A stretch of 63,552 nt of DNA, counting the filler, from Lenisia limosa (lineage: Eukaryota; Protista; Breviatea): the NCBI GenBank assembly GCA_001655205.1. It is 12 parts of 12 records of this genome, joined end to end, with 100 filler letters (N's around TTAATTAATTAA, not from the genome) between each part and the next. Parts side by side here need not be neighbours in the genome. Positions count along the whole stretch, not along the records: positions 1 to 4,497 come from LPNZ01008613.1; positions 4,598 to 5,843 come from LPNZ01002178.1; positions 5,944 to 28,692 come from LPNZ01007879.1; positions 28,793 to 34,033 come from LPNZ01010280.1; positions 34,134 to 38,632 come from LPNZ01001889.1; positions 38,733 to 40,703 come from LPNZ01007723.1; positions 40,804 to 42,095 come from LPNZ01010331.1; positions 42,196 to 43,221 come from LPNZ01007425.1; 4 more parts are not named here. One strand, 5' to 3'. Below the pieces are notes generated by a model, which searched no databases, had not been told where the DNA came from, and saw only the letters and a program-made list of their open reading frames with translations. The position numbers and the translations under genes were made by a program. Each line of letters begins with the position of its first letter. Within the stretch, counting starts at the first letter, position 1. Shown here in pieces: positions 1 through 62,470 of the stretch.

Positions 1-201
1 GGGGGGGGGGGGGGTCATTCTCATCTCTACCTAGTATATAGTATGTACATACAGTAACCAGGATAAGTCTTGACCGATTTGCAATATGATTGCCCAAGGA
101 AAATAGGTCAAGACTTATCCCTGTCACTGTATTGTAGATATTTCAGTTGATTTGGGCTTTTTTTTTTTTGTTTCATAAATGTTCCAATTTTACTCCTCCA
201 G

Positions 202-279
202 GCGGAGTATTCCTTCGGCAGTATCACGGCCATGTCCCTGGGAACCGCAGATTGCAACAGTGTCAGCATCGCTTTCAGG
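202..279 (+). CDS. Internal exon of an unidentified protein (AEYSFGSITAMSLGTADCNSVSIAFR)
   Basis: AG at 200-201 closes a family-C repeat. There are 26 open codons, then a GT donor at 280 followed by a G-run. A second probable exon lies at ~512-556. Confidence 0.5.
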
Positions 280-1317
280 GTGGGGGGNNNNNNNNNNNNN
301 NNNNNNNNNNNNNNNNNNNNNNNNNNNNNNNNNNNNNNNNNNNNNNNNNNNNNNNNNNNNNNNNNNNNNNNNNNNNNNNNNNNNNNNNNNNNNNNNNNNN
401 NNNNNNNNNNNNNNNNNNNNNNNNNNNNNNTTCAATGTCTAATCATAAATATTAGGCCCCCCGCTTACGTACTTCCCTTCACTCTCCATAAATATACCAA
501 TTTTACTCTCAGGACGCGTTTTATTTCGTCCATATTCCAATCCCCTCGCAGGACGAGGTGACACAGCACTGGTGGTGCAGAAGAGCTGCAAAGCTGTTCG
601 AGGTGCTGACCTATGTTCGTGAACAGTGTAATAACCGTCCTTCATCGGTGTCTTTTGTCTAATAGGGTGAGGGGGGCTTTCAGTGGGTTGGTAATGAGGG
701 GTGCGTTTTTGCTTTGTTTTGTTTTAAAATAAGATATTTTAAAGTTAGGTAGTGAAATCCTTCACTTAGCTTAGATTCTTACCCTTTTTTATTATTATTT
801 TTGTTCTATGTATAGTCAAAGCTCCGGACATCATTCAAAATTCCCTAACACATCAAAACTCCCGGACAGCTTGACTTGGGATTCTTGTGAACACGTTGGA
901 ATTCCCAAATTTTAAATGGGAATCCCATGGAAATTTGAAGAAATTTATGGGATTAACAAATAATATGGGAATCCAAAGTTGACGCACCGTGGTGAAGTCC
1001 ATTTACTCCTGCATTTCTGACCTTTTAGGTTCTGTATCGTTCTAGTGTATTTCTAATCTATGTGTAGTTTTGTTTCTTATTATCAATGAATTATTACGGT
1101 TTTTACGGTGGTAAAACAAAAAAATTGTCACAGTGCGTCCGAATAAATGATTTCCAAAAAAATTCGTCACTGCATCCGACAAATTCGTCACCATGCGTCA
1201 CCTTCGTTCGGGGTGGTGGTTGTAAAACTCTGAGATTACCATATTAAGTAGTGTATAATGGAGCTGAATGGAAATTGAATATTTAAATGACATTAGACGG
1301 TTTCCAAAAACAAGGTA

Positions 1318-5000: not shown

Positions 5001-5243
5001 CTTATCCCTTTTTACGTTCATCACTTCGGGCTGTTGTTTATAATCAGGAATAGGTGCAAAGACTGGTGGTATCGCTAAGCTTAGATATTGTTGTTATGCT
5101 GTTCAGCTTACAGTGACCAGGATAAGTCTTGACCTCCTTTGGAAATCACATGGCAATTCAGTCAAGACTTATCCCGGTCACTTTACATTCCTTTTGCCTT
5201 ATATTCAGCTTGTGTATTGCTCCTTTTGCCTGATGCTATTCAG

Positions 5244-5762
5244 CTTAACAACGCGGTTGTGGCCCAAAAAAGGCAGGTGATCGAAGCTGCGAAATACGAC
5301 GGAATCATCATGCAGAGGGTCAGGACTCGACTTGACGAACTGCAGTCGAGTGGGAGGGGCGGGCAAAGAATGAAACAAAACAAGATTAATTACCGGTACA
5401 TTATCGATAGTTTTCGAGGATTTATCGAGAAATTCAGTCTTTTTTCGAATTGAAGTGAAGCTGTTCATGTTAAAGGATGGGTACGAAATCCCCCAGAATA
5501 ATTTTTTGATTTTTTTAAGTAGTTCGGGCTTCGAACTGACTTGAAGACCTGGGGGGTGGGGGCTTATGTAAAATACTTAATCACTTGACCTTCTTTATTC
5601 AGCATCCATTTTTGTTATTCTTTAATAGTAGTCTCAGAGAACAAGTTTCTAATTTCTTTAGAACCACAAGTTCTCGACCTTCAGTCTTTGGAACTTACAC
5701 TGCTCGCTTTGGTTGAGGAAATTGACGTTATTCTCTGCAAACGCCAGCTAGCAGTTGCTTCA
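5244..5762 (+). CDS. Two exons of an unidentified helical protein
   Basis: Exons LNNAVVAQKRQVIEAAKYDGIIMQRVRTRLDELQS (donor followed by a G-run) and SENKFLISLEPQVLDLQSLELTLLALVEEIDVILCKRQLAVAS lie on the small contig 4598-5843. Confidence 0.4.
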
Positions 5763-5944: not shown

Positions 5945-7111
<1,167 letters not shown>

Positions 7112-8362: not shown

Positions 8363-10882
8363 CTAATGGTATACCATCTGCTCGACATCCCATCCTGGAA
8401 TAGGGAAGGCCTAGGGATAAATTAAAAGAGCTGATGTTAGCTTACCTTTGAGAACTCCATTACATCATTTCCAAGTTCTTCAACCATTGGGTGCGAACGC
8501 TGTTGAAATTAAACGGTACACCAGAACAGCTCGGTATTGTTGCCATTGACTTGAAAAGAACACCACAATCCCCTCCCACTCCTTCCGTTTCCATGTACTC
8601 AAGGAAACCCTTGACCTTCTTGGGTGCTATAAAGTGAGACTTGTGGAACAACCATTGAGCCAACTCTTGTCTTCCTTCTTCAAAGCGGCAGTGATGTCAA
8701 CGCCACGAGCAAGGAAATCAGCTACCTTCAAAGTAAATCGAATATGTGTTTACTCTTTACCTTTTCGAAATCAGTTTCCACCATTCCACGAGTAGTGAGA
8801 GCAGGAGAGCCAAGACGCATGCCTCCTGGGTAGAGCGCAGACTTATCCCCTGAATATAAGAAAATCTTATACCAATGGATTTCAACTCACCAGGAACCGA
8901 ATTCTTATTGATGGTGATATGTGAAAGCTCCAAAACCTTCTCAGCTCTTGCACCATCAACACCCTAAACCCATCAGATGAAACAGTCGTCAAACCTTGTT
9001 CTTCAAATCAACAAGAAGAAGATGGTTATCAGTTCCACCGGATACAAGTTTGAACCCATGGTGGGCAAGGCGGTTACCAAGTGCTTGGGCATTACTCAAA
9101 ACCTTGAAGAGTAATACAAAAACCAACTGAGCTCTACCTGCTTCTGGTATTCCTTAAACTCCGGAGTTTGACTTTCAGCAAGCGCGACAGCAACTCCAGC
9201 AATTTGGTGCTGATATATGAGAACAAATATTGCACGATACAACGCACCTGATGAGGACCTCCCTGAAGAGCAGGGAAGACGGCAAAGTTGATCTTTTCTT
9301 CTAAGTCATATTTGGTGCCGTCAGCCTACTTGGTTAAAATCTATCCATTCAACCGTCCTAATTTACCTTGGTTCCCTTTCGGAAGAAGATCATACCAGAT
9401 CGGGGGCCTCTGAGAGTCTTGTGAGTGGTGGTAGTGACCTATTATGTTAGTGAAGGTAATGAAAGGCAGAAGCACCAGGAACTATCTTACGATGTCAGCA
9501 TAGTCGAAAGGCGACTGAGGAAGGAGCTTGGCGGCCTCCAATCCAGATACATGAGCCATATCAGCAAGAAGGTAAGACTTGTGCTGATCACATATCTGGA
9601 ATATTACATTAGCTTCAAGAATACGCTCCACATCAACATCAACACACGCACATACAGCTCTGAACTTTTCGTAGTCAAGAGACCTAGGGTAGGCAGAGAA
9701 GCCAGCGATAATCATCTTGGGGCGGACAACAGAAGCAGTTCTTTCCAGGAAAGTATAGTCAATAAGCCCAGTGGACTAAATTATAATCAAAACTCCGCCT
9801 AAGATAATTGAATATGAATGATACCTCATATCCACTAGCATGATAATTGAACTCCAATACACTCAGATGAAACCTCGTGTTATCTTCGTTCATCAATTTG
9901 ACTCGAACGTCGCCATATGATCATACCACTTGTGGATATGGCAAAATGTATTACTGTAAGTTCAGGCAAATAGTAGTTCACAAGGCAACTAAAGATTCCT
10001 TCCCAATTGCTTTCTTGTATTGACCAATATACCTCATCAAGAGTGTACGGGATAGACTCGAAGTACACGGATGTAGCAGAAATGCGCTTGTTGGGAGTAG
10101 CAAAGCTGTAAATAATGTTACACTTCTATCTTTGAGCAGTTTCTATCATCAACGGAGCCAACAAACCCGTGAGTGAGATGTCCGCCACCTGGGAGGTCCA
10201 GGCCCATAATACGGTCGTGGGGGTTGAGCACTGCAGTCATGGCAGCAAAGTTAGCTGGGGATCCTGGACCCAATTAGAACAGAAAATCAAAACACAATAA
10301 CATAAAGCCTCACCAGAATAGGGTTGAACGTTAACACCCCATTCCTCCGGGTTAAGGCCAAAGGCAGAGAGAGCACGGTCCTAAGAAGTCAACAGCTTGA
10401 CAAAGAACCAACCTGACATAAACGTTCGACTTGGTCAATGAACTCGTTTCCTCCATAATAACTAGGAAGTTATGACAAACACAGACTAAGAGGGTATTGA
10501 AAACAAAACCAAAGAAGAATGGGGAATCAGGGAAAAGCCTCCCACCGAGCACCAGGATAGCCTTCAGCATATTTATTGGTCAGAGCAGATCCAAGTGCCT
10601 CTGTGACAGCACGGGAGGTGAAGTTCTGCAGGTTATTATTAGGGATCAGGAAATACCTCAGATGCAATAAGTTCAAGTCCTTTCCATTGCCTGTTCTTTT
10701 CTTTTTCAATAAGATCAAAGATAACGGGATCAGACTCTCTGAGGGGGTTGTCGCTTCTCTAGAAAAGTGAACTCCTCAAACCAATCTGCAACTCTTACAG
10801 TGAGAGTAGCCAGCGAACGGCATGACCTTGAGACTTGAGTTGCCAACCTCCCTGCAAGTGATGCTTTGGCAATAGAGAGCAT
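8363..10882 (-). CDS. SHMT: Serine hydroxymethyltransferase, mitochondrial type
   Basis: Spliced translation contains [50 protein letters not shown] and LLADMAHISGL. The N-terminus [25 protein letters not shown] is Arg/Ser/Ala-rich with no acidic residues, like a mitochondrial presequence. Stop TAG at 8363-8365. Many 30-60 nt introns. Confidence 0.97.
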
Positions 10883-10970
10883 TATGAAGATTTCCTCAGG
10901 CTCTAGTTGATTCCTCTGTTTTTTTTGCCGTGTCAGTGCCGTCTCTTGGATCGTGTGGTCCTCTTGTTTC

Positions 10971-13900
10971 TTATTCTCCAATGCAAAAGGTTTTCTGAAG
11001 GCAACCTGAAGGTTTTTCTGTTTTCCGAACCAAACTCCCGGCTCTGGCCAGGAGGGAGGCATGTCACATCACATATATAATACATAGATAACATAATCTT
11101 AATTTCTTGCAACAAAGGAATTCTGTGTCTGTAACCTTTGACTTGTCCCTTGTCGCATCACAGGACGTTGTTGCCCAGTTTGTAAACGAGGCTGGAAAGT
11201 AAGCAAAAAAAAATGGTGCACATACGTTGCTTCCCTGAGTCATGAGGCGTTGCTGGCTATTGGACTGGTTCATACCCATGCCCATGTTGCCTAAAGGTTT
11301 AGAAATGATAATTAAAGAGTGATATCTACTATGGTTACTACAATAATAATATGACACTGAGATCTTTCACAAAAAAAAACACCTTGAGTGTTCATGCGTT
11401 GCGGGCTCATTTGGGACTGACCGGTCCGAGGGGGGCTCATCATGCCTGAATTCATGCGTTGTGGGGCCTAAAACATCAACATCGCTTTTGTTCCTGGTAA
11501 ACTAACCTGGCGCTGAACGTTACCCATGCTGCCTTGATTCTGCATTCCCATGCTACCCATGCTTCCCTGGTTTTGCATCCCCATGTTCATGCTGCCTTGG
11601 TTCTGCATGCTGTTGTTGCTCATTCCACTCATGTTGCTCATGCTTCCTTGCCCTTGCATGCCCATTCCCATCTGGTTCTGGCGCATTTGGTTGGTGTTGA
11701 TACTGTCCTAAAATAATATGAGAGACCCACACAACCTTACATTGCTCACAACCGAACTGTTCATTGACATTGAGATCTAAAGAGTAAACGGCCACTCCAG
11801 TCCAGGGTGAAGCCAACCTGGGAAGTTGACATTGCTGTGCCGAGTCTCGAGTCCATTGACGAAAACGTCTGGGCTGTAGTCATACGGTCCATGTTCTGAA
11901 TACCAGACATGGTGCTGCCGCCACCCATCATCATCTGAAAGATAACGCAAAAGCTTTCCAATAACCCACATCGGAAGCCGTCATAATATCACGAGAATAG
12001 TCATCCATGATAGGCCCTTGTGAATAGCAACCCGATCTTTAAAGTAAGGCTTCAACGCAAGCAAATAAAAACTTACGCCATGGAGCCTGCGGTGTTTAGT
12101 CTTTCCATGCCCATTGAATTGGCGGTGCCGAGCCGGCCGTCATTCTGCATGCCAGTCATTGGTCGGTTGACGAACTAAGAAGTCAGTTTGTCTCTCAGGA
12201 CTCGTCTAACTAACCACATTGGCCTGGGCTACTGTCTTTAATGTTGGATGTTGCCGACTAGCATTCTATGGGGTTACTTAGCAAGTAGGCTTTTTGAGCC
12301 AACCATTGTGCCCATTTCGTTCTGTGCTTCCTTTGACTCAGTTCCTTCGGTTTCATACTGAAATGTCTGTTATAAACATGAAATACCAACCTTCTCTCCC
12401 TTTTTGCCCTTATCCTTCGCCTTAACACTACACGCCTTCTCCAAGAAATCAACAGTGGCAAATTGTCCTGTCAACATGGCTGTATCTACTGGTGCCAGAT
12501 TGTCCTAAACAATGAAACAGACCCTCTACTCCTACAATATCCCGTTCAAGCGGCTTGTGCTTCATTGCAATGATGGCTTCTAAAACCTGAAGAAATCAGA
12601 TCAATTCTCCAAGGTACACACCAAGCGTATATTGCACATAAACAAAAATGAAGTTCATTATAAAACCAACGCACATTAATATGGCCGAAACCTGCAGCAA
12701 CATGAGCTGGTGTACGGCCATTTTTAGATTTACCTATAATTGTAAATAAGATGTCTTAGAGAGAAATAAGCCTACAATCAATTTTCAACTTGGCCTCATT
12801 AACAAGGAACTTCAAGGCCTCAACATGACCGTGGCGCGCTGCGTAATGTACCGCCGAGAGTCCGAGCTAGAGCATAAACAGCAGACGAGTTGACAAACAA
12901 TATCCCTTGCGTCCGATTGACATTTGTTAGCGACCAACCACTCCAACGCTGCCGTTTTACCTCCTTTAGCTGCAGCATGGATAGCTGTTTTACCTTCCTG
13001 ATAAAGTCAGCAACAAATAAGCAACGATAATACTACCCCCCTCCACCCCACCCCCCAACTCACATGGTCTTTACAATTAATATTAACACGATGAGTTTGG
13101 GCCAAATATGCCATAGCCTTTACTCGGCCTAAACAATGAGAAAACTATTTGTAACAGCCTACCCTTCTTAGCCGCACTATGAAACGGGGTCTTTCCAAAC
13201 TACAACAATTATAATAAGTAAGCCAACTTCATCAGCTGCAAAGGGATCTCCTCCTTTCGTTTCGGTCAAATATTTAAGAAGTTTAACTTTACCACCAGCA
13301 GCAGCATAATGAAGAATTGTTTTACCATACTAAACAATGAAAAACGAAGAGGACCTCACCATGTCAGCTTCATCAACTGCCATGCCACACTTCTCTATCA
13401 TCCATTTAATAATATCAAAGTTACTGTGTCTAGCAGCACAATGGCATGCTGTTCGTCCATCCTAATATAGCATATAAGTTTCTTGGTAACAATAAAAAAA
13501 AAAGCACCCACCGCATCTCTAATGAAAGGTGGAACCATACAGCTCTCAACAAGCCATTGTGCTACATTCAAATGTCCTCCAATACAAGCCATGTGAAGAG
13601 GGGTCACACCAGTCTAGAACGATAAAGACAGCCACTTTGATCTACTTGAGGAGGAAAGAAAATCTCTATCCACTCACCTGAGAATGGTCATCAGGTGGAG
13701 CGCCCATTGTAATAATACTCCAGTGAATGACTTCCATTTTCCCACTTGACGCTGCAAAATGGACCACTGATTGTCCCAGCTGTTTACGTCATTACAACTC
13801 TGTTGTTCCAACCTTGTCTCTCTTTTCAACATTAACACCAATAGCCTTAATCAACCAATTAACAACTTCAAAATGTCCTCCCGCAGCCGCAAAATGAAGT

Positions 13901-16080
13901 GGAGTGCGACCTTCCTGGAACATATTACTCATTAAATTCACAAGTGATACCAACAATGTCATCAACGTCCATCATCACGCCGCGTTCAGCCATAAACTGT
14001 AGGGCGTGGATCTTGCCTTCAGCAGCTGAAAAATGCGGACCAAATCGTCCTTTCTGGAAGTGTTATTTAGAGTTCAAATACATTCCCCAATGGTTATTCA
14101 TAAAATCCCACAAACACTATCACGAACATCAAGAGGAACACCACTTTGGATAAGCCACATCATAACCTGAAATGATAAGCGGTTCAATGACCCTGTGACT
14201 ACCTGAATATCGCCATGCGCAGCTGCGTAATGAAGAAGACACCGTCCAGTCTACAGAGTAAACAGGCTGAAACAATAACGCAAACTTTTTCCTCGAGACT
14301 AAGAACATCACCATGGCGGTTATCCAAAAGCCAACGAACGGTACTGAAATGATTGTTTCGGGCAGCATGGAAGAGTGGAGAAATTTTATCCTTGAACAGT
14401 GAGTCACAAAAACAGGCAAACCTTGTCCAGGACCTCCGGGTTGTCACCGCTTGCAATAAGCCACTTCAAAACGTCCGTGCGCCCTGCTTTTGATGCCATA
14501 TGAAGCGGAGTTTGGCCGAGCTAGGGGTGTGAAACAAAATGGTTGCTTTTTGACCGTGCTTTCGTGTATTGCTTGATGAACCTACCTATGTAGACAACCT
14601 TGACTATTTATATGTATATTGGAGAGCAAACAAAATATAATTTCCAAAACACCCAATAAAACACAAAAAAATAATCAGATTAAAGACATTTATTTAAAAA
14701 ACCGCTTACCGAATTAACAGGGGCCGGTGTAACATTGTGCTGGTTAAGGAGCCACTTTACTGCTTCTAAGTTTCCTGGAAAGTTTATAAAACAGAGGATT
14801 TGTAAACCGTACCAGACATGGCAACAAAGTGGAGAGGGTAGAATCCTGCCGAATCTGCGACATCTAAAAGATCTGGGCAGTTCTCAGCAACAAAACTTAA
14901 AAGCCGAAGATTTCCTATAAAGTTAAATCTTGAATCTGTAAAAGAAATTCAAACCGGAAAGAGAACTGTAATGTACGCTGCCACGACTGTTCTAAAATGT
15001 GAGGCCAAAACCTTAATATTATGAATTATCCATTCAGTGCATTAATCAATGTTTTAAAGAATAACGCCTCTCACGTTATCCATTTCACGAAGTGTCATTC
15101 CACAGCTATTAATAATCCAAAGTACGCCTGCCTCGTGTCCATAACGTGCAGCATAATGAAGAATTGTACGACCCTGGTGGAATAATAAAAGAATAGACTT
15201 ACATCAGAATCTGTTTCCCTAAATGGTGCTCCTGAGTTGATCTGGACTGTAAGAAATGGCAAAAGGGTTTTTAAAGAACAAAGATGACTCACCATTGTTT
15301 CAAGACACGGAAGTGATCCACTCTGAGCAGCACAATGAACCGCAGTACGTCCCATCTAGGTTTAAGAAACAGAAACTTCGCAAAAGCAGTCAATTTCATG
15401 CAACCTCTTCCTCCTACATAATCTTTGATCGAGAAATCACCACCCATTGAAGCAACAACATCAATGACATTAACGTGTCCTTTCAAGGCAGCCATGTGGA
15501 GGAGTGAAAATCCGTTCTGGGCCGTGAAAAACAGTGGCAATTTACCTTGTTGACAAGAGTTGGTGAGGCATTACCACTCTCGAGAATCTGAAGGACCATG
15601 TCGGCGTTTCCTTTGTTCGCAGCGCGCATTGCTTTGCGTTCAAGTGGAGTAAGACCATCATCCACAACTTGAACTTGAGGAGCTGGCTGATCAACATTCT
15701 TATGTGGTTGCTGATTCATATTCAATTGATTATGTTGCTGATTTTGTGAATTATATACAACATTAGAAATGCTGTCTTCGGCAAGGATGGAGTCAATCTG
15801 AGACATTTCATCCGCGGTGAAATCATTTTGAAGGTAGTTGTCTCCTTCGTTGAACGGCTCAAAATCTGCTTGCTCCATCTAAAAAACATAACATACTGGT
15901 GCTTAAGAGGGTAGGCTGTCAAAGCGGAAGTACTATCACCTCAGTATTATCAAAATATAACTATTAAAAGAGTGTACCAAATTTCTTCTATTATATGTGA
16001 ATATTTCTTACAAATTAACCATTATCCAGCCAGCTTACAAGCTCATTGAGCTCAGGGTCATCAAAGTCCAGGTCGTCCAT
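10971..16080 (-). CDS. Large ankyrin-repeat protein with a C-terminal M/G/Q/N-rich low-complexity tail
   Basis: Starts MDDLDFDDPELNEL. About 20 repeats of type G.TPLH.AA..G...V.WL lie between ~12400 and 15600, followed by QNQGSMGSMGMQNQGSMG-type exons at 11200-12160. Probable stop at 10971-10973. Confidence 0.85.
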
Positions 16081-16306
16081 TCTACTATTTTCAATTCGTA
16101 TTCAACAAACGACGATTAATAATAATTTAATAATATATAACTGTAAACTACCTAAAAAAATCTCTTTTTTTAACAACAATGATATCCCCGGTGGCGGACC
16201 GTCTGTACCTCTTTTCTTTTTCTAAGTTTCTAAGTTGCAAGGACGACATTCTTCTAAAGCATTCTATTCAGAACAACACAGCATGACGTAATTTAGTGAA
16301 TCCGAA

Positions 16307-42651: not shown

Positions 42652-42668
42652 CCCCCCAGCTCCCCCAG

Positions 42669-43321: not shown

Positions 43322-44428
43322 TCGAGCGCCTCAAGCTACGTACGGCGCCGTGTCGACCGCGCCAAAAAGGGGCAGCACAGCGAGTCGTCCGCATCGGAGA
43401 GCGATATCTCGGACTCGAACTCGTCGGAGAGCTCTTTTGTGGATGATGAGGTAGGATAAACTTAAGGTTTTACTTCGATTCAAAAAAAGACTGAATTTCT
43501 CGATCAATCCTCGAAAACTATCGATATTTTATCAGTATTTTTCGAACCAAAGTGAAGCCCTGGATAAACTGGCTCTGTGGATGATGAAACTGGTTCTATT
43601 TTCATTTCCTCTAGGCGAGAAAGCAAAATCTATAAAACGGTGTCAACGAACTTTTTTGATGGAGCATATTTTCACCCATTAGGGTAACGACCGTGACCCC
43701 ACTCCTCCCCCCGCAACCAAGTCTCCTCCCAAGTTCCAGGCAAAATCGAGGCGTAAGCGCGCGCCCACTTCTGATAGCGGTACGAGGGTACCCCCTCCCC
43801 TTTACGCTGGAGTGATGGGATACGGTGCTGGCCTGGGCTTTGTTATCAAACCTTCTGTGTTGTCAACCAACAGAGTTGATTTTGGGCCTTTTTTTTTTCC
43901 ATACCCCTCCCCCCGCAGATCTACTGTCATACCCCTCCCCTCCCCATTTTATAAATTTCACTATTCCCTTTTACCCGGCCAGAGTCCGAGCTTTCTGACA
44001 ATGATGGCTTGGACGAGGAGTCCCTTCAAATCGACCTGTCAAGCGCATCTGAGAGGGTTTGCGGTGGTCTTATTGGCAACTCACCTTATTTGGAAGTCAG
44101 GACTTACCATATTTAGAATCCGCGGCCGGCAGCACCCCGGCGTAAACCTGGGTCCATTTCCGCCAGTTCCGACTCGTCTCTGTCCGGCTCTGACCTCGGC
44201 TCTTTTGACGGCTCCGTTTCGATGTCGAGCGATTCGGATGTATGGGGGGAGGGAGGGGTAGATCAAAGATCGAATATTTCGCTCTTTCAAATTCCTCTGG
44301 GATCTTTGACCTCCCCCCCTCCCCATTTTTTTCTCTACATTCATTTTATTACAAGTTATCTCCAATTCCTTTCGGTTTCTCTTACTTTGCAGTTGAGTGA
44401 CGGTGACGTCTCAGGCCTCTCGTCTTAG
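43322..44428 (+). CDS. Ser/Asp-rich C-terminal exons of a hypothetical protein
   Basis: Exons SSASSYVRRRVDRAKKGQHSESSASESDISDS.., SELSDNDGLDEESLQIDLSSASER and NPRPAAPRRKPGSISASSDSS.., with final exon LSDGDVSGLSS* ending at 44428. Confidence 0.6.
43463..43562. mobile_element. MITE family B (hAT-type, ~95-100 bp), copy with intact TSD
   Basis: Consensus TIR TAGGGCTTCACTTCGGTTCGAAAAAAGAC, with an 8-bp duplication GATAAACT at 43455-43462 and 43563-43570. Other copies at about 5392, 19678, 21525, 25254, 27225, 27713 (TSD cacccaac/ttcccaac), 30852, 32165, 33890, 35772, 35882, 36000, 36157, 41924, 47165, 54044 and 63175. Confidence 0.88.
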
Positions 44429-44607: not shown

Positions 44608-46200
44608 ATTACACATTTGCCCTTGAGCCGAGCCCTGTCATCCGACTCGAGTCCCGCTCCATCCCACCATATCGCTGGGCAATAAGAGAAACGATAATAC
44701 GTCAACTTTAACCATAATCCGCAAAACATGGAAGGATGTGTGTAATACCATATGATATCATAAAAAAAATTTACTCCAGATGTCATGGATAATGAATGCC
44801 TGACAGTTTGCTTTAACTGCAACCCTTTGATAACCACATACCTGCGGAGACGACACCGTTTGGGTGAGAAGGTCTAACAAATGCTCGGTCCAAAGAGTGA
44901 ACTGGTATTATTAAAAGATGTTCACTCTCAAACATATCATATGTAACAATTATATTCCTGAATCAAAACAGAATAATTCTTTTTTCAGGAGTTCGAAACC
45001 AAATGTGGAATACATCAGGTCGGAAAACAAGCCTTTTGAGCAGCAGAAAAAAACAAGACTACTTCTGACACACCAACCTCGTGTGGAGACGGTGCCACGA
45101 AATCAAGGGTTCGGTTGACGCAAACAATAGAGAAGTGGCTCCCTGCAAAGCTCTTCTCAAAGTGCTTGCTGTTCAGGATCTGCTCTGATGGACCGGGAAT
45201 AACCGTCACAATTTCGGCTGAAAGGTGAGGCAAATGTCAAATTGAAATAAAAATGTTGTATGCCAAAGCCGAACACAAAAAGCAATTTGTTGAATGATGT
45301 GTTTATCCGTCAAAACAACAAATGGACCTTGATTACCTTGCTTCATTTTTCCATTGACTTCGCCCCAGAATATCATGCGCCGCACTGCGTTGAACACACA
45401 GAATCGCGTGTGGACTAGAAATGAGAAACGAAGGAAATCAGTGATGACATTGTGTTTCATCGATCAGACACAGCAAAAATCAATAAAGCAAAAAGCCCCC
45501 CCTCTCCCACGTTTGCCGTTACGGGTGTACTTCTGAAGCTTTGTGCCACGGAGTAGGGTACTTGCGTGTGTGGAGCGCGTGGACGGCGTACGCGGCCGCA
45601 AATCCTGGAGATTTCATGGGGAGCGGGAGGGATGCTTATTTATTAAAAACATAGAAGAGCGGGTACAGTTAATACAATGACAATGAGAGCCCCTAATCCC
45701 AGCAAATACAGCACACAATACACACACTACCACCCCCTACGGTCAGCGTGCTGCTGGTGACCAACCCGTCCGGCAAGGAGGCGATGGAGGCTGTCCTATC
45801 CCGCGGCGGCCGGAGTTCATTAACGCGTTTGTTAAAGTCTTCAACTTCGGTCTCTTTTTGCTGGGGGGGGGGGGGGNNNNNNNNNNNNNNNNNNNNNNNN
45901 NNNNNNNNNNNNNNNNNNNNNNNNNNNNNNNNNNNNNNNNNNNNNCACATAAAATCAACACTGTTGACTAAACTTTTTGAAAAAAACAACACCTGGGTAA
46001 GAACACAATTACAACTTCTTCAGTTATCTAAAAATGTGGCTGAAGATTGATTCATTAAATGTATTGTCACGTTCTCAAAAGAGGTTCTCACTCACCAGTC
46101 TTTGCTGAGCAGCCCCAATCAAAAACGTGAGGTGCGACACCAGCTCCGACGCTTGGGACGTGAACAGAACGATCTGAAGCAGGTCACTCATTAAAGATAC
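44608..46200 (-). CDS. Hypothetical protein, possibly PH-domain
   Basis: Exons QKETEVEDFNKRVNELRPPRDR, RFCVFNAVRRMIFWGEVNGKMKQ, FEKSFAGSHFSIVCVNRTLDFVAPS and FTLWTEHLLDLL follow PH-domain strand/helix order. Confidence 0.45.
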
Positions 46201-46906: not shown

Positions 46907-49900
46907 CACTTCCTGAACTGGATGAGCTGGATACTTGAAGATGGAAATGTGGGACTTTTTTGAAGTGGCATTCACTTACCTCTTGCAGACTCAGCGGAGC
47001 ACGATTGAGTACTATGGGTTTGTCTCATTCCCCGAAGGAGTCCGTATCTCTATCTTGGACAAGCTCAACGACATACAGGTACGACGGCAGAAATCGTATA
47101 ATACTATAAGAAATCAGATACAAGAATACACAGTTGGATACGCGAACGAAAGAGGATTCTTTGAAGGACTTCACTTCGGCAACAAAAAGACCAGTGAATT
47201 TTCGATATTTATCGAGGATTTATCAAGAAATTTCGTCTTTTTAAAAACCGAAGTGAAGCCCAAGTGATATGTCACAAGTTCATGGCTGATACGGTGTAGT
47301 GTGTTTCCGAGATACTTGAAGACGGAACTGTCGTCTTAGAACCTGCCATTTGCCCCTATGTTGAGGGTGTGAAATGCAATGGAAAGGTGAGTGGTCGGTT
47401 TTGTACAGCCCAGCTTTTTATGGTTTCGTATATCATATTGACTTGTTAGGGCATTTGTAATGACGGAGAGTGCGAATGTGAGGAAGGCTGGCTTTTAAGC
47501 AACTGCACCGAATGTATTCTACCCGAGTGTCTGGATGAAAGTTGGTAGTGGTGTTTTACTGCGAATATCTCTTGGGGATTTCTCACTTTTTAGGCTCGAG
47601 CCTGTTTATGGTCTATCTTATCAGTGCTGGAGTTGTGCTCATTTTTGTTATTGTGGCAGTTGCTGCAATGCATCTCAAGAGCAAGGTAACAGAACTAAAT
47701 AATGGGTTTTTGTGTTGCAATTTGTCAATCGCAATTGGGGATTTTGCTAATCATGCAGGCCGCACTGAGGAAGCAACAACGCGAAATGTCGAAGCCCTTC
47801 ATCGTGGACATGGCTGACCTTGTGTTTGGAGGTGCGTGGCGGGGGAGTCATAACATGCGTGGTGGGGGACTCATGACTGTTTCACTAGTTCCTCATGCCT
47901 GTAGAGATTATTGGCGAAGGCAGTTATGGCGTAGTTTACTCTGGGTTGTGGAGAGGCACGCCAGTTGCACTGAAGGTTAGCAATGCTTGCATCGGTGGTT
48001 GTTACCGTCTAGGTTTTCAGACGGGACTTCTTCGGTTCTGGTACTACAGACAAAAGAAAAAGCAAAAAGACTTCCAAGAGAAGCAATGCCAGTAACACGT
48101 TTGCTTGCTCCCTTGCTGTACCACCTCACTCCTCAGGACTGCCAGCTCCTTCCCTAACACTGAAGCTGATGTGACTGTTACGAAACCCATTCTCAAATCG
48201 GTTTGGCGATACCTTTTCTTTTTTTATCTTTCACACTTTTTTCTCTCATGGAGTTCAGAGGAAAGGTGACGCTTCTTCCTCCAATGGCAAGCACCCCTTG
48301 TCAACTACGCATCTCAGGAGTCGCGTAGGAGGGTTAATGGTTGCTTTCTTGATTGTGGAAAGCCCATTTGACAATTTAGCGCTCTATGCTTGTGCCCACT
48401 ATGGGGAATCAAAGAATGACATCGATCCGGTTCACCGAATCCGGCTCAAAGGGAGTAGGCTGGTGTTAACTTTCCGTTTTTGGATGTTCATAAGAGGATG
48501 AGCTTGGAACTAACGTTTCAGCGCAATGTTACACGTCAAGAGCTGCATGATGCCGCAAAAGAAGAGGTTCAGATCTTGTGCCGTTTCAGGTTCACGAAGG
48601 GAGATTAGCACCAAACTCCAATTCAGTTGTGCAACCTAACCTCTCCAGACATCCCAACATTCTTCTCTTCATGGGGGTCTGCTTCTCCAACGATGATATT
48701 ATTGTGGTGACAGAGCTTCTTGAGAATGGCTCATTGTTTGATGTTATCCATGATGAATCGATTGAGCTTGCCAACGAAGAGGTGTGCTTGGGTAATGGGC
48801 AGTGCCACTGTAAAGAATCTGGCTGCAATTCCCACTGGACCGATTCCCTTCTCATCCCTGTAGATTCTTGACATGGCGTTGGATATCAGTCGTGGTGTTG
48901 GTATGTGGTTCTGTAGTTCCGACCCTTTCTCATCTCCTCAGAGTACCTGCACAACTGCAACCCTCAGATTTTGCATCGGGACCTCAAGTCGGCGAATATC
49001 CTCGTGGACTCCAACTTTGGCCTCCAAGTCAGCTGGGTTTTGGACCAAACCGAATCGATTATTCCTTTGCTGGTCTTTTTACTTACATCATTTGTTGACC
49101 TTTGCAGGTTGCAGACTTTGGCTTGTCGCAATTCAAGGAAAAGCTGACGAAGGGGGCCATTGTCGGAACCGTGCCTTGGATGGCACCTGAGGTAGGCTCT
49201 TTGTCTTCTGACGGTGCAGATTATCAAAAGTGGCATGTTCACGGAAGCTGCTGATGTGTATTCCTTCGGTATCATCCTATGGGAACTCTTGACGGGAATG
49301 GTGAGCTGTCTGACCGCTTACTTACTTTGCAGGAACCATACCCGTCTTTCTCTATTGAGGAAATCCGTGAGGAAGTTCCAAATGGACTGAGGCCCGAAAT
49401 ACCACCAGGTTCTAGGGGTGCTGTATGATTTGCCCCGTTGGTCAGATATAACTGTTCAGAGACGTCGCCTTTCTTCAGTAACTTGATTCAAAAATGCCTG
49501 GCCGCGGATCCGTTGGACAGGTCGGCATGGCTTCTGCTTGCTTGTTTGACTATTCAGACCACAGTTTGTTGAGATTTCGGCCATGTTGAACTCCGAAAAG
49601 GGCGATAGGAAAGCGTATAACCGGACACAGCACAACAAAAAGAGAGTGTGTCCACTATGACAAAGGCACATTGGTCCTTCTTATTTCCTTCTTCAGTCAC
49701 AGCATATGTTTTTCACAGTAACCCCCAGGCCGAATTGACGAACAAGATTCTTCCACCCCATATAGCGGCTGCGTTAGCTGAGGGCCGACCCGTGGAGCCG
49801 GAGACTTTCGAAGATGTTTGCCAGCTTTTTCACTTTTGCAGTGACCCCCTTCGAGACACTCACCCCACAGGTGACGATCATGTTTTCGGACATTGTGAAT

Positions 49901-51610
49901 TACACCTCTCTTGCCTCAAAATGCTCAGCGGACCAAGTAATGGTACGTCGTCTCTCGTCGCATGCACTTGCTGACACACTGCTTTAGAAACTCCTTGATG
50001 AGTTGTTTTCCGTCTTCGACAACCTGACCCGGAAATACGACCTTTACAAAGTCGAAACCGTTGGAGGTGAGGGTCCCTATGTTGCCTCACAACACAGACT
50101 GCTACATGTGTGTCGGAGGTTTGTACCCAAAGATCCCTGATCACTGCGAAAGAATGGCGAAAATGACCCTAGAACTGGTCTCAATCCTGGAGAACCCTGA
50201 CACCATGGTGTGTACGGCTGGTTGTTTGCTCCGCTATTGTTTTGCAATAAGAGCATTTATTGAGGCTATTAAGGCATAACCCCTATAGATCATGGACCCT
50301 CTCGGTAAACAGGTTTTGGTTCGTTTGGGATTCCATTCGGGTCCGGCCGTTGCATCAGTTGTGGGCTCCCTCAACCCGCGATACTGGTAAGCCATATGGT
50401 ATCTTCTGTTCACTATGCATACCTACTGTGATATCCAACTAATCGTTTAGTCTCTTTGGCGACTCCATCAATTTTGCATCCCGTCTTGAATCGAATGGTT
50501 TGTCAAAGGGGCTCTGGGGCTGACGGTATTATTGATGTTTTCTTTCCATGTGCTAACGCGCTCTTCTTCACACGTATCGTTTAACAACCCAGGCGATCCC
50601 CTCAGAATCCACGTTTCCAAGGAGGTAGCCTTCCGTCTTCAAGGCGCATTCATCCTCCAGGCCCGTGGCAAGGTGTTCCTGAAGGTGCGTAACACGCCGT
50701 TTGGGTTGAGCACTGATACTTTAGGGCAAGGGCAATCTTGAGACCTTCTTTGTTGTCGGAATTCGACAGACCATTTTAAGCCAGACAGAGCTTGAAAACA
50801 GCGCATCGTATATTGAAGAAGTCGACGATAAGTCCTCCGTAAGCCATTCCTAGCGTTATTGGTTCTGATTGTTCTCGCTCGAGTTGTATAATCCCTTCAG
50901 ACACTGGAGCGGATCCAATCTGACATATCCATGGCCCTCGCAATGAGCCGGGATGCGTCCACAGCATCAACATCGAGGAGGAAGCCAATAGTGGGTCTAT
51001 GAGATCGTTTTGATACAGACCTGAAGCTATGGGGTCTTTGCGTTAATAGACTTTACCCGTCTAGCCTAGGCAGTTGATGGGCCAATCCTCAACTGAGTCA
51101 ATGGATGGTAGGCCATGTGCAGATCATTTTTTTCAAGAAACAGTTTTTAATGCATCACTCTATTTTGAGCCTCCTGGACCTTAGTTTTAGCCCCTGAGCT
51201 TACCCCTCAGAATACTCCCTCCTCCCAGTAGTCCGACGCAGGCCTAGCCCAACAGTAGTCCGGACTCTGTTCTTGAGATGCATCATCTATTAGTCTAATT
51301 CCAGTCGTAATGAATACCGACTATCTAATACAACAGAACCGGCCAACCCCGATATTGGCACCGAAAACAGCGGTACTCTGCGCCTCCCCCGTCATGTCGC
51401 CAAGAGCACCGGCGGCCTTGGTTGGCGATGTGAGTGTGGATTTTCTCTTTCTTACCCCTCAGAGCTACCATATGAACCAGTCACGAAGCACGTCTTCGCC
51501 TGATCTCTGCAGCTCACCCGTGTCTCTCAGGTAGGTAATGAAGAGCAGTCCTTTTGACGCTCCAGGCCAGGGTTGTGCGAAGAATCCATCGATATGGTCG
51601 AGGAATAATA
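46907..51610 (+). CDS. Single-pass receptor: PstS-like ectodomain end, EGF repeat, TM helix, TKL kinase and guanylate cyclase (5' incomplete)
   Basis: EGF: [25 protein letters not shown]: [23 protein letters not shown]. Kinase: [71 protein letters not shown]. Class III cyclase: [40 protein letters not shown], where the Glu/Cys pair indicates GTP specificity. Confidence 0.9.
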
Positions 51611-55429: not shown

Positions 55430-58400
55430 CACTATTCCAAGCAGCTTGTCACAAGAACACTCTGCACCATTTTCAACGAGGGGAATCATGGTTGGCAAGC
55501 AGTTTTTCTCAAAGGCGTATTTGAGGGGTGTTTTTCTCTGTTGAATGAAATTCAGCCAATTAGGAATGATCACTTAATACTTGAATATTATGGCAACCGA
55601 ATGAGTTAAGTGGAGTACAATCTTACCAAAGCACAGCGGCAAGAAAAACTTTGCACAAGATAAATAAAACTTAACATCTTAACCACCAACTTGTCTGTCA
55701 GCTTTATCAATATCGACGCCCTTTTCAATGAGGTACTTCACGATGTCCAAGTGCCCACATTGAGCGGCATAACTGAGAGGTGTTCTTCCCTGTTTAATTA
55801 AGGTCATAGAACCCGACATCAAAACTAATGAAACAAATGTGAAAAAGATAGTAGCTGCCCAGATCAAGAATGTAATTCGAATAGCACAAAGATGTTCACC
55901 CACGACTTGATCAGCTTTATCAATTTCGTCAATCTCCTCAGTGAGGTACTTCACGATATCCACGTCACCATACTCAGCCGAATAACTGAGGATATTTCTT
56001 CCCTGATATAAAAGGTCATCCATGGGCCATAAACACAAGAGAACCAAATGGTTAAAACTAAACTGGGCAGCAGTTATTACCCATAGTAGGAATCGTGCAT
56101 CTGACTTCCACAAATGTGACATTTCTGGCGCAAAAAGACAGGTGGAACTATTTATTCTCAGGTAACATATTCTTCATGGACCATCCTGACCACCCACAAA
56201 TCTGTCAGCCGTATCAATATCGGCACCATTCTCAACGAGGTACTTCATAGTAACCAAGTCGCCACATTTTGCGGAATAACTGATAGGTGTTCTTCTCTGT
56301 TTTAATAAAGCTTGCCAAAAAGGAGTATTCGATTATCTATTTGAACCGAATCAGATATTTGAAAAGTTTGCAACCTAGAGGGAATGCAGCTTAGAACATC
56401 ATTCAAACACAAAGCCTTACACACGTTAAACATTCAATCATCTTTACCACCCACATCCTTGTCAACTATATCAATATCGGCACCCATCTCCTTGAGGTAC
56501 TTCACAACATGCAAGTGGCCATATATAGCGGCATATCCGAGGGGTGTTCTTCCCTGTGTTAAAAGGTCAGCCAATGAGATATATCTGAATCCATACAGCG
56601 GATATGTTTCAACAAACAGGTAATTTACTTTTCATTGAACCTTGACCACCCACAGTTTTTTTATTAGCTTTATGAATATCGGCACCCTTCTCAATCAGAT
56701 ACTTCACTAGATCCAGGTTGCCACCTTCAACGGCAAATCCTAAAAGTGTTCTCCCCTATTTAATGAAGGTTCGCCAAATGATGGATCAAATAGTGACATT
56801 GAACAAAAGTTTGAAAATAATTGCAAAACAAATGTGAAATGTAGCTTAGAAAAACGCAATCACAAAGGCAAACAACACACAGGTTAAATTTAACTCAATA
56901 CCATCAAGACAACCCACATTTGAATCAATTTTTTCACTATCGGCACCCTTCTCAATGAGGTACTTTAACATATCAAAGTGGCCACATTTAGCGGCATAAC
57001 TTAGTGGTGTAAATCTCTGTTAAATTAAGGTCAGCCAATGAGGAGTGCAATGTAGTACCAAAGGCTTGAATTGAACAGAATATCACAAACACAAAGGCAT
57101 ATACAACAACCTGTCAAGTATTTATTACCGTTGTGACCACCATACAAATTTGGCAGCTTTTTCAATATCGGCACCATTCTCAATGAGAAACTTCAAGATT
57201 TCCAAGTGTCCACGTTCAGCGGCAACTGAGAGGGCTTTACTTCCCTGTTTAATGAAGGTTTGCCAACAAGGATTGATCGACATTATATCATACAAATGTT
57301 TGGAAATGTTTGTGCCTCAAATACAAAATGTAGCTTAAAATACTAAAACTTACAGATCCGATATACAAAAACCCACCCCCCACAATATCGGCACCTTTCT
57401 CGATAAGCAACTTTAAAAAATACAAGTCACCATGAAAAGCGACGTGACTGAGCACTGGTCTTCTCTGTTAATGAAGGTCAGCCAATGAAGTGTAATCAGT
57501 TTGACAAACAATTATTAAAAATGTTACCACCCAAAACAATGCACGCATATTATCTCACCAAAGCGAAACGGACAGAAGAAGTATACATACTTCTAATAAA
57601 CCATTTTAAACCCACTTCAACATTAGAGCTATCAATATCGGCACCCTTCTCAATGAGGTACTTCATGGTATCCACGTGGCGAAACTCTACGGCGTAGCTG
57701 AGTGGTGTTCTTCCCTGTTATCAAATGTTANNNNNNNNNNNNNNNNNNNNNNNNNNNNNNNNNNNNNNNNNNNNNNNNNNNNNNNNNNNNNNNNNNNNNN
57801 NNNNNNNNNNNNNNNNNNNNNNNNNNNNNNNNNNNNNNNNNNNNNNNNNNNNNNNNNNNNNNNNNNNNNNNNNNNNNNNNNNNNNNNNNNNNNNNNNNNN
57901 NNNNNNNNNNACAGACAAAAAAACCAAATCAAAAGCCAAAATTAAATAAGATACCCAAATGAGGAAATAATACAATATCACCATTCCCCTCATTAAAATA
58001 TCACAAGATCAAAAAGACAAGTGAACTATTCATTATGACATATGATATTCTTTTTTGAACCATCCTGACCACCCACTTGAGAAGCTTTATCAATATCGGC
58101 ACCCTTCTCAATGAGGTACTTCAAAATTACCAAGTGGCCATACTGTGCGGCGTAGCTGAGGGGTGTTCTCCTCTGTTTAAAAAGGTCAGTCAATAAGAGT
58201 TGATAAAGGCATACAACAGCCAGGTTCAGTATTTAATAACGCCCTAAACACCAACATTTTTATCAAATTTATCAATATCTGCACCCTTCTCAATGAGGTA
58301 CTTCACGATGTCAAAGTGGCCAAATTCAACAGCATCGCTGAGGGATGTTCTTCCCTGGTTAAAAAGGTCAGTCATTGTGTCATTATATACAAAATAACCA

Positions 58401-59381
58401 AGTCAAAAGCTTTAAATGAAATAAGATACCCAAATTAGAAAATGATGCATTATCACATTCCCCTGATTAAAATATCACTAGAGCAAAAGACGAGCGAAAC
58501 TATTCTTTATAAAGTCAAAATTATTTCATTAAACCATCTTTCCTCAATACCCACTTTTGGATTAAGTTTATCAATTGCAGCACCCTTCACTATGAGATAC
58601 CCCACAACATTCAAGTTCCCATTGTTGGCAACTCTGATTGCTTTTCTTCCCTGTTTAATAAACGTCTGGCAAATGATGGAGCAAATATTTACAGGAAACA
58701 AATGTTTGATAGAATATCACAATCACAAAAGCATATGACACACAGGTTCAGTATTCACAAAGGCGTATAAAACACAGGTTCAGTATTTACTTTAAAAACA
58801 TCCTGAGCACCCACATCTTCATCAGTTTTATTAATTTCGGGACCCTTCTCAATAAGGTACTTCACGATGTCCAAGTGGCCAAATTTAACGGCATCGCTGA
58901 GGGGTGTTCTTCCCTGTTTTAAAAGGTCAGCTAATGGGTCATATATACAAAAGAGTCAGATATACAAAAGAACTAAATCAAATATATATCAGCATTCTCC
59001 GAATTAACACATCACCAAAGCAAACCGACAACTGAATCAAGTAACAGCATATTCTCCATGAAACCATCCACTTAAGGATTAGGTTTAGACACTCTTATCA
59101 AAGACTACAGCGAACGGGACAAATCCTGACCGATTTGCAATATGGTTTCCCAAGAATATCATCAAGACATCCCTATCACTGTATTTTAACCCATTTAAAT
59201 GCTGCTCGAACCATACCACCCTAATGGAGTTCAAAATACGAGCAGGATAAAAAAAATACTTTTATCAACAGTCCTTTTTCCTTACAAGGTGGTTAGAGGA
59301 ATTAATATTACTTTCGTCGGCTTCCAGGAGCCGCTGGACTTCCTTAAGATTCCCTTTTGAACAGGCATCAAAAATGTCCAT
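55430..59381 (-). CDS. Ankyrin-repeat array protein, one repeat per exon
   Basis: Starts MDIFDACSKGNLKEVQRLLEADE at 59381. Thirteen visible phase-0 exons of type GRTPLSYAA..GHLDIVKYLIEKGADIDKAD, mostly 99 nt, plus a degenerate terminal repeat at ~55430-55535. The 3' end is uncertain. Confidence 0.9.
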
Positions 59382-60017
59382 CTTAGAAGGCTGGGTGGGT
59401 ATGGATCTAAATCTAAACGCAGTTACAATATAATCGACTCAGAATCTTGGTTCTTCAAAGATAATGAGATCTGAGAACAATTACCCTGATAGTTCAGGTG
59501 TCACTATTGTACAAAAAAAAAAAAGAAGAAGTAGGGGTGGGTGGCGGCAGAGTCGACCAAGTCCGTTATTAATATGAACAAGTCCGTTATAAATATAAAC
59601 AAGTGTACCTCTTCTCTTGTTTAATTCTTGTTCTCCTTCTTTGATATATTCTTACCGCCACCCTGCAACAAGTCTACTTTTCTTGTTCTGTGGACAATGC
59701 TGCATGCTGCTTGTGTATAAAAAAACCGATACTATAATACACCCCATGATGGATGATTTGTTGTCAGTAATGTAACTAATGCAGCTAGTGTAACAGTTGA
59801 TAGATATTTCCTTTTCCGGTTGCACCATCGTCACATTTCCCTTGTTCGTTTGCATTGTCCGCTGTTTTTCTGTTTTACACTCTGATTCTCCTGTTTCTCA
59901 TGATCGGTCTCCTTCAGACCCACAAAACACACACACACAGTAACATACACAGCTTCTATCAATCACAATTACCTCCAAGCCTTGATTACCGAGACCCAAC
60001 TGTTTTTTCATTATCAT

Positions 60018-60610
60018 TATAAAGAAGATGGCCATTTGGATATCGTGAAGCACCTCATTGAGAACGGCACAGACATTGATAAATCCAGTCATGAGGTGTG
60101 AGGAAAGTGATCCTGGGAGGATGTATCTGGCCGAAGCCGTCCATGCCGTCACACTTATAAAAGCTATTAGGGCAGTGTATACATTAATTCACCCAATTAT
60201 TTGACTTACAACTCTGTTTTCACTGCTATCTGTGTGCACCACCACCATATCTACAATGATTAGAAATCACGAATAAGGACAAATCCCCCTGTTCAATAGC
60301 TTCAGTATGCCCTCTTAAATCTGTCCTGCATCACTGATTCAGGAGGTTTCAGTGGGTTAGAGTTACGGGTATCAAAGGCTTTAATCTTGCCCTGAATAAT
60401 TAAACGATGAACAGATGAATGATATTATATCTTCTGATTTTAAAATACGAGATAAAAAGCATTTGTTAATAACTCATGATTACTTTTAAAACATGGAAAA
60501 ACACCCCATAGCAATGCTGGATTTAACCATTTGGATATCTAGAAATTGCTCATGAAAAGAGTGCCGGTATTGATAATGCTAATAATGGAGTGGGTGTTCA
60601 GGATGGGTGA
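60018..60610 (+). pseudogene. Degenerate inverted paralog of the ankyrin array
   Basis: EDGHLDIVKHLIENGTDIDKSSHE at ~60018-60093. A second copy at ~60490-60590 has in-frame TAG stops and is followed by the array's intron motif gtgggtgttcaggatgg. Confidence 0.55.
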
Positions 60611-62470
60611 TTAGATATAATTAGCTATATACTATACATTTTACTTGGCTTGTGCTTTTGGAATGTAACATTTCGTATTTGGTAGCCAAGTTGTCTATTT
60701 AAGGATGAAAATTCTCAAATGATTAATGAAACAGGGAGCTCAACTCTGCTTTGCTTTTATAAATCACGTGAATATCATTTTTCACCTCCTTGAGAAGAGA
60801 ATGGTGCAGATACGCTGTTTGTTGTCATTTTTCGAATTATGACTTGAGTATTTTTGGATGACAATCTTCAAAATTCTGAAGTACTCACATAATGTCGCAA
60901 AGAAAAATTGCCTTACTCTCCAAAACATTTTTTTGTATGATATCAACACCCTAACATTTTAGTATGCGGAACGCAAGCGGCCATTTTGTTAGATTTTGAT
61001 CAAATTGTGGTTCATCTTTGGGCAACTAATCTACCACTATTTTGAGATTGTCGATTAGCATTTTGCTTTTTGGTGTATGATACAATAGTGTTGTTGTTAA
61101 GAAATGATTGTTGTACTTTTCCATCATGAAGGGGACGAACCAGATAAAGTCATATGATGAATATAATAAGAAGCTGCCTCTTTGTCATTTAATTTTAGTG
61201 TTTTTTCATTCTCGTTTGTATTGGAATTTAAACACGAGAGAAATTATCGAGATAACAGAAACATTTCCTTTGAAGAATCCTATCACTTTTTGGATCATTT
61301 TCACACATATGAGTGAACATAAAGTGACCGGGATAAGTATTGATGGACAGATTTAACTTAGAAAATCAAATAGCAAATCGGGCAAGACTTATCCTGTAAG
61401 TATCATAGTTGTAATCAATGTGCCATCTTATGTTCTCGGGGACTGTAACTCGCGATAGCCTGAGATGTTAGAAACTGTTTTAGGGTCATGATCAGGTTGT
61501 TATACCATACTTACATATTCCTATGTATTTATTTGTTCCCCTAGATTTCTCATGTATATTATTTCTCTTGTTCCATTTTTTGTGAAACATTTTCAACAAA
61601 ACAAAAAAATTGGGATATTTCGATTGATGATAAAAAGTTCAAAGAAGGGTTTAGATATGCTGATTATGACTCTGACACAATGGTTTCTTACACCTCAGAC
61701 TAGGCTATCGTCAAAGCGTCCCCTGTTAGAGAAGTTGATGTGTCCTATTACAACAACTATTATATATGATACTCTATTTTTAATACGCATAGCATATTAT
61801 GGAAAGCTAGAAATCATAGATCAGAATTTGCTCTTGTCTAACCATAATCAAAGTCAATTATCAAAAAAACAAAATCACAAAACATATGCAACATTACATA
61901 GCGAACTCCTTGATAAGAGCAAATTGCTTCTTCACCACACTAAAATGGTGAACATTAAANNNNNNNNNNNNNNNNNNNNNNNNNNNNNNNNNNNNNNNNN
62001 NNNNNNNNNNNNNNNNNNNNNNNNNNNNNNNNNNNNNNNNNNNNNNNNNNNNNNNNNNNNNNNNNNNNNNNNNNNNNNNNNNNNNNNNNNNNNNNNNNNN
62101 NNNNNNNNNNNNNNNNNNNNNNNNNNNNNNNNNNNNNNNNNNNNNNNNNNNNNNNNNNNNNNNNNNNNNNNNNNNNNNNNNNNNNNNNNNNNNNNNNNNN
62201 NNNNNNNNNNNNNNNNNNNNNNNNNNNNNNNNNNNNNNNNNNNNNNATTACCTTGACTCCAACCAACACTAGTATTCCGCCTCGGGTAAACAGGAAGGGG
62301 CTGTGGTCGTCGCAGGTGTATTCATTCGAGAATATTGACCTGGTGAGGGGGGTAAACTTGGAAAATTTAANNNNNNNNNNNNNNNNNNNNNNNNNNNNNN
62401 NNNNNNNNNNNNNNTTAATTAATTAANNNNNNNNNNNNNNNNNNNNNNNNNNNNNNNNNNNNNNNNNNNN

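Follow-up and report, generated by a model that had tools for sequence, protein, structure and literature searches.

Introners that carry a 3' splice site of their own and recruit a 5' site have been published (PMC9860276). Many Introners with a 3' site have target-site duplications or terminal inverted repeats and some do not (PMC9860276, PMC11282704). In the closest known system, homologous sequence is found in the introns of unrelated genes, in gene sense, and reaches the acceptor. The same is seen for family C, a repeat in a stretch of 63,552 nt from Lenisia limosa (Breviatea; GCA_001655205.1), here called the window, which consists of 12 short scaffolds joined by N44-TTAATTAATTAA-N44 spacers. 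The closest known system has clear 4-bp target-site duplications and inverted termini and its homology spans the intron, whereas in family C only the 3' part is shared.

Screens for Introners also arrange introns into families by similarity, some of them of unknown mechanism, but they demand similarity at both boundaries, and family C would fail this filter and be discarded as a secondary insertion (PMC12130899). In the species table of that study 19 of 19 'amoeba' rows have zero families, which is of limited weight here. Fungal introner-like elements resemble family C in having neither target-site duplications nor terminal inverted repeats and in their gene bias, but are whole-intron copies (PMC9860276, PMC11282704). 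The transposon-derived U12 introns of Physarum are also a proposed element-derived class with a branch motif of its own near the AG, but they have RTATCYTT donors and inverted ends (10.1101/2020.10.12.336362). None of 12 family C donors matches that motif or RTATCCTT, and the tail consensus differs from the TTCCTTRAC branch. The literature searched, with most subscription journals outside it, held no 3'-only, strand-locked repeat at acceptors in its accessible parts. We regard family C as an unusual, new variant of element-derived intron signals, for whose mechanism of origin two readings lead.

Position and orientation of family C

Family C is a genuine dispersed repeat of about 150 bases, located at the intron 3' ends of unrelated genes. 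Its parts are ordered as head (CTGGAGTGATGG...), body (...CAGCCAACAGAGTTGATTTTGGGC), T-run, tail (GTTTCATAAATTTTCCAATTTTACTC), C-run, 0–8 nt and AG. The earlier note on this DNA had reported about 20 copies; the hand census of the window confirmed the repeat and counted 30 segments, which fall at the 3' ends of about 22 introns. The copies at 512, 24246, 45861 and 19751–19782 and several in tandem had been missed in the note. In 29 of the 30 segments the inferred orientation is host sense, and none was seen between genes or as a clear antisense copy. The remaining segment, 42060–42095 on the minus strand, is a weak tail-like copy. It is in sense if a possible short last exon follows it, and antisense if its host is an intron of the plus strand, so its orientation is as ambiguous as first described. 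A profile made from 10 window copies had 30 matches, of which 22 reached at least 5 bits, as compared to one in the reversed window. The 26-nt tail matrix, made from 17 copies, had 23 matches against 0–3 in each of 10 block shuffles, and these were read as 20 family C tails, one minisatellite and two chance matches (10035 and 63167). The match at 10035 was rejected as a family C tail, it lies antisense across a donor of the SHMT gene and has neither C-run nor upstream homology. Exact-motif scans of metagenome contigs (two scans) and of viral contigs gave no family C relatives.

The 16 AG positions first listed are all NAG, 15 CAG and one AAG, each with family C upstream. The coding score was above zero over the 45 nt after the AG at 13 of 16 positions, as compared to 13 of 77 YAGs inside introns. 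Two positions need comment. Where 43918 and 43982 had been offered together, 43982 is in frame and 43918 is out of frame with a score of -7.3, and 25031 is doubtful, being the AAG with a score of -10.7, while its rival, the in-frame CAG at 24998, scores -3.7. The coding score is blind to strand, antisense sequence is scored alike, and the strand was therefore assigned from phase-consistent GT-AG exon chains, one plus-strand Pfam match to a collar domain and one RNA boundary. The in-phase chains comprise eight exons at 34180–38564, a five-exon and a four-exon chain at 19842–23861, and shorter ones elsewhere; the gene model at 34134–38632 rests on its phase chain, without RNA.

The RNA boundary concerns the acceptor at 27487. 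Record 3 of the RNA contig set X1 lies on 27319–27485, stops a single base short of where the exon is predicted to begin, and then continues elsewhere, which supports the use of AG 27487 as an acceptor, the sole one of family C with RNA evidence. The donor of this intron falls in a gap, and the remaining family C introns rest on phase chains. The possibility that family C is a donor on the opposite strand (G-run then GTAAAA) was rejected, at 27487 the RNA ends on the AG side. The stretch 27622–27685, previously taken as a mid-intron exception, belongs to a sense copy (27622–27709) located 135 nt upstream in the same intron ending at 27487. The X1 loose ends at 20569 and 22150 belong to two RNA-library contigs with family C sequence from other loci, either unspliced RNA or DNA carry-over.

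Four DNA unitigs cross copies without difference, one over 19936 and 20512, one over 23670, one over 25031 and one over 27487 and 27622. The tail is also present in 28 DNA contigs of other loci, which continue beyond 22150 along the family consensus, and at 23678–23707 it is the point where a unitig breaks. There are thus at least dozens of further copies of family C at other loci, although depth gives no copy number.

The copies differ in how much of the repeat they hold; the evidence for each is given in brackets. Near-full copies are found on the minus strand at 20512–20637 (AG 20512; exon chain, DNA unitig), in a 272-nt intron whose rest is mostly one nested miniature inverted-repeat transposable element (MITE), and at 24998–25157, with AAG 25031 or in-frame CAG 24998 as acceptor (coding score). 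On the plus strand they occur in the 211-nt intron 35385–35595, where a G-run donor precedes the copy at 35469–35595 (exon chain), and in the 203-nt intron 43780–43982, where the copy reaches 43918 and is followed by a second tail and the in-frame AG 43982 (exon chain, coding score). Body ends with tails are located at 145–201 plus (AG 201; profile, tail matrix, two-exon chain), 19936–19998 minus (AG 19936, intron of 460 nt; profile, exon chain, DNA unitig), 30232–30273 plus, running into a gap (profile), and 43165–43221 plus, with a C-run at the scaffold end, in the intron after the collar-domain exon (profile, Pfam).

Tails by themselves are seen on the plus strand at 485–512 (AG 512, intron 280–512; exon chain, tail matrix), 29114–29150 (AG 29150, intron 28892–29150; exon chain, tail matrix) and, at a scaffold start, 34134–34179 (AG 34179; exon chain, tail matrix). 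The minus strand has them at 22126–22158 (AG 22126, intron 22735–22126; tail matrix, intron table), at a scaffold end, 62340–62370 (AG 62340; tail matrix, coding score), as a tandem pair at 1796–1924 (AG 1796, intron 2062–1796; profile, exon chain, tail matrix), and as the 3' half of a 72-nt intron at 23670–23741 (exon chain, tail matrix, DNA unitig). Body fragments on the minus strand are either followed by a gap, a C-run and the AG, as at 24246–24531 (assembly gap, AG 24246; profile, exon chain) and 45861–45969 (weak, 3.4 bits, AG 45861; profile, exon chain), or cut by a MITE, as at 19751–19782, where the acceptor of the host intron looks ordinary (profile).

The composite copies are the minus-strand 27487–27709, with body and tail at 27709–27623 and a second tail to AG 27487 (RNA, profile, tail matrix), and three on the plus strand. 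At 30400–30744 a tail-head-body-tail dimer (30400–30582) is followed by a gap, a MITE and AG 30744 before an ankyrin-like exon (tail matrix, dimer test); a tail-head dimer extends across a gap at 36900–37116 (AG 37116; profile, exon chain, dimer test); and 37251–37561 holds a body fragment, a MITE remnant, head and body, an AT-rich insert and a tail (AG 37561; exon chain, tail matrix).

Intron length and the 3' signal

The window DNA is eukaryotic, as seen from the SHMT gene, aligned to its homologue across 10 GT-AG introns of 31–257 nt, and from the RNA contig of an ankyrin-like gene, which skips four introns of 28–30 nt; its gene content resembles that of a protist. A protein search with an SHMT exon gave six matches at 67–68%. 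The scaffold 5944–28692 holds both short-intron and family C genes and their DNA depth is alike (25–39), it is therefore likely that they belong to one genome. Among 22 single exons compared with Pfam, one matched the collar domain PF07484 at E 1e-4, short of the curated cut-off, one TPR_TmcB weakly (E 0.11), and 20 were blank; protein searches with two single host exons gave no match. The names REJ-like, ankyrin-like, hydrolase-like and TmcB-like stand for what we take to be resemblances of host exons beyond these Pfam matches.

We compared 68 introns modelled by hand, each with its two ends present, in a set that was in part selected around copies; non-GT-AG models, the uncertain exon pair 5350–5602, one duplicate ankyrin donor and gap-ended introns were left out. 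Family C is present in none of 21 introns shorter than 60 nt, in one of 23 of 60–199 nt and in 11 of 24 of at least 200 nt (Fisher p 0.0018 for the last two classes). Thirteen of the 24 long introns, including those of 988, 722 and 561 nt, do not have it, and a loose RNA end at 28267 indicates an acceptor without family C in an intron of more than 425 nt. Long introns thus have family C more often than short ones but can do without it, and the earlier suggestion of a cassette required for expanded introns is not supported, in view both of these 13 introns and of the 72-nt intron that has one.

The 3' ends with family C also differ from the others in their putative branch motif. YTTAC occurs in the last 24 nt of 9 of 12 family C introns as compared to 9 of 56 others, and YTRAY in 1 of 12 as compared to 22 of 56. 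Ordinary introns have a YTNAC motif with its A mostly 9–11 nt from the intron end, in family C introns the distance is 8–18 nt, and their predicted branch point is the A in TTTAC. Ordinary introns of 28–60 nt are found in 8400–16100 and 49100–50500, with the predicted branch A mostly 9–11 nt from the end. Two kinds of 3' end in one genome would make branch-point choice directly testable.

At the donor side, G-runs track intron length and not family C: they follow the donor in 0 of 21 short, 3 of 22 middle and 8 of 13 long introns without family C, and in 6 of 12 with it. In 14 of 25 introns that are long or have family C the G-run comes directly after the GT (e.g. 31537, 35385, 36569, 37975, 40994 and 44240). 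G-triplet enhancers are similar to these runs. The donor G-run at 44240–44326 is the left arm of a foldback of about 90 bp with a C-rich right arm.

Origin of family C

The last 60 nt of the family C introns score 30.0 against each other, as compared to 19.2 when shuffled, and the similarity reaches the 3' boundary. The downstream exons are near their shuffles (15.2 as compared to 14.5, 1 of 153 pairs above the shuffled maximum), and since they are unrelated the copies do not come from gene duplication. Homology over 100 nt and more among introns of unrelated genes therefore needs copying of family C itself. The homology fades in the 5' direction, coverage being 7 of 22 matches at profile column 10 and 19 of 22 at column 95. 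MITEs interrupt or follow copies at 19751, 30690 and 37281, and family C is therefore likely to predate some of the MITE insertions.

The explanation we put first, tentatively, is an Introner-like mobile element, of which family C, ending at 3' splice sites, would be an aged remnant. The homology, the position and one used acceptor are demonstrated, and branch point, C-rich tract and AG are all likely to come from the tail. The element would have inserted into exons and survived only when facing the direction of the gene, and the spliceosome would have removed it, using the 3' signal that the element carries together with a GT close to the 5' side of the element. Being unconstrained, the 5' part may then have decayed, been deleted, or gained MITEs and AT-rich inserts, while the tail would have been retained and often duplicated in tandem. 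An aged Introner-like element is preferred because it needs no new mechanism and because roughly half the length or more belongs to the copy in those introns that are least expanded (203, 211 and 272 nt). It would also show what such introns look like after 5' decay, and imply that current screens may undercount introns made by elements.

Several observations weigh against this explanation. The 5' ends of the introns score 15.3 as compared to 14.9 shuffled (36 pairs from the 9 of 12 introns free of N), and the top-scoring pair appears to share a nested MITE; the host-intron 5' halves are unlike, as the earlier note had said. No target-site duplication was found in 12 introns, where junction repeats average 1.67 nt with own ends and 1.64 nt with swapped ends and one repeat is 6 nt long; age could erase such a duplication. 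In the same 12 introns no inverted termini were found (own 16.3, swapped 14.5), the end matches being limited to runs of G and of C and to CTGG/CCAG, 4 nt long. The tail is no better conserved than the body: pairwise identity in the five longest copies is 57% for the head, 72% for the body and 67% for the tail, with shuffled values of about 50% (body 51%). The head starts at varying distance from the donor, with unique sequence in between, and at 25031, 30582, 43918 and 27622 the copies stop 40–160 nt before the likely acceptor. Among the RNA pieces listed, one of seven family C acceptors in 8700–28690 was matched, the other six being uninformative since the RNA joints are incompletely represented, and the intron models are hand-made, mostly without RNA, and picked around copies.

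Because the 5' ends are unlike and neither target-site duplications nor inverted termini were found, family C fails the published definition of an Introner, yet it works like an element carrying its own 3' splice site. Of the first proposal, an Introner-like or acceptor-targeting element, the strand-locked repeat ending at acceptors thus stands and the classical Introner marks do not. Rfam had no match on a copy in 19600–37400, no tRNA match was found for family C, and inspection by eye for Helitron and non-LTR termini showed neither a 3' hairpin-CTRR nor poly(A). Fungal introner-like elements have a shared fold; in eight family C bodies there were no consensus pairs and no common hairpin.

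It is conceivable, though somewhat unlikely, that family C instead homes to splice acceptors, inserting in sense at or just before the AG of short introns already present or of its own copies, swapping in branch point and C-tract, and thereby rewriting a large share of the 3' signals of the genome. Such targeting is favoured by the dimers, by copies that stop before the AG, and by the 5' remainders of unique sequence, whose lengths resemble those of ordinary short introns (28–60 nt). The spacing from C-run to AG varies between 0 and 8 nt, the 5' truncation forms a gradient as in 3'-primed copying, and the missing target-site duplication fits as well. Tails recur in tandem, e.g. at 1796, 27487 and 43982, and tail-before-head joins are significant at 30400, where none of 500 shuffles scored as well, and at 36900 (p 0.004), as is the tail repetition at 27622. 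However, the dimer test was not significant at four of the seven places tested (43780, 25200, 37240 and 20640), duplication by slippage also explains tandem tails, no enzyme, full-length partner or young identical pair was seen, and the targeting mechanism is an inference only. If this reading is true, a mobile element can conceal itself within a compact genome by making the 3' splice signal its own, and screens that demand both ends would miss this way of changing introns.

It is rather improbable that family C is a domesticated 3' splice cassette which gene conversion has spread and which persists because it is needed in long introns. The enrichment with intron length agrees with it, but a 150-nt insert lengthens an intron by itself, the bodies have no shared RNA fold, and the 13 long introns and the acceptor at 28267 without family C speak against a need.

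We consider an ordinary intronic repeat, inserted at random and then sorted by selection, distinctly improbable. Antisense Alu, which gives a pyrimidine tract, is a precedent for a repeat that supplies acceptor signals in one orientation (PMC3629564), and the reverse strand of family C, a G-run then GTAAAAT, is a donor-like signal open to purging. Random insertion is disfavoured because the antisense and mid-intron copies to be expected are missing: nearly all of the 30 segments are at an intron end, and no clear antisense or intergenic copy is among them. Alu occurs in introns in both orientations (282,706 sense and 342,016 antisense) and mostly gives cryptic exons from its own sequence, whereas family C has one orientation and lies before host exons (PMC3629564).

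Pairing of the C-run with the G-run after the donor, bridging the intron ends, is very improbable as the explanation. Bridging by GGG/CCC and AC/GT has been proposed for human introns, which are alike in having G-rich 5' and C-rich 3' ends, but it concerns simple repeats and not a 150-nt homologous element (PMC4691745). The duplex of own 5' and 3' ends was slightly stronger than that of swapped ends (p 0.046), but this weak signal was gone without two introns (p 0.29), the G-runs track length and not family C, and the homology of more than 100 nt would be left unexplained. An assembly artefact, with a collapsed repeat glued beside exons, is largely refuted, for although the window is joined from 12 scaffolds and 11 of 26 sized gaps adjoin G or C runs, four DNA unitigs span copies and exons unchanged (the DNA run may be the assembly source), the RNA contig ends at the acceptor, the copies are mutually different and the exon phases chain.

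Other elements and genes in the window

A palindromic MITE of about 100 bp, with about 21 copies in the window, starts (at 5394, 28905, 30849, 32168, 35772, 41925 and 43464) 12–44 nt after the donor at 7 of 10 donor positions checked, and was likely inserted into once-short introns. The statement that the MITE families show no positional bias is not confirmed by this count, which is from hand-picked donors and has no null. A second MITE of about 85 bp, with TACAGTGAC ends, is found at about 12 loci (49–132, 5108–5185, 6086–6159, 24561–24644, 27936–28018 and others), and a third follows the donors 20783 and 22735.

A 34-nt minisatellite at 42300–42659 ends at the acceptor of the collar-domain exon; its resemblance to an amplified family C tail reaches p 0.10 only. 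The exon itself (42662–42763) is the one with the below-cut-off match to the phage tail collar domain PF07484 (E 1e-4) and belongs to an intron-containing gene. In the ankyrin-like gene at 55600–58950 on the minus strand each exon holds one repeat, and the introns are related, with a GTGGGT donor and in many cases CTGACC close to the AG, its exon-intron units having been duplicated together. At 47500–50800 on the plus strand there is one apparent gene, presumably with a membrane kinase-like region followed by a cyclase-like region. The last scaffold has the same sequence of about 60 nt at both ends (62471–62530 and 63495–63552), which is either an overlap artefact or a sign of a circular or tandem unit.

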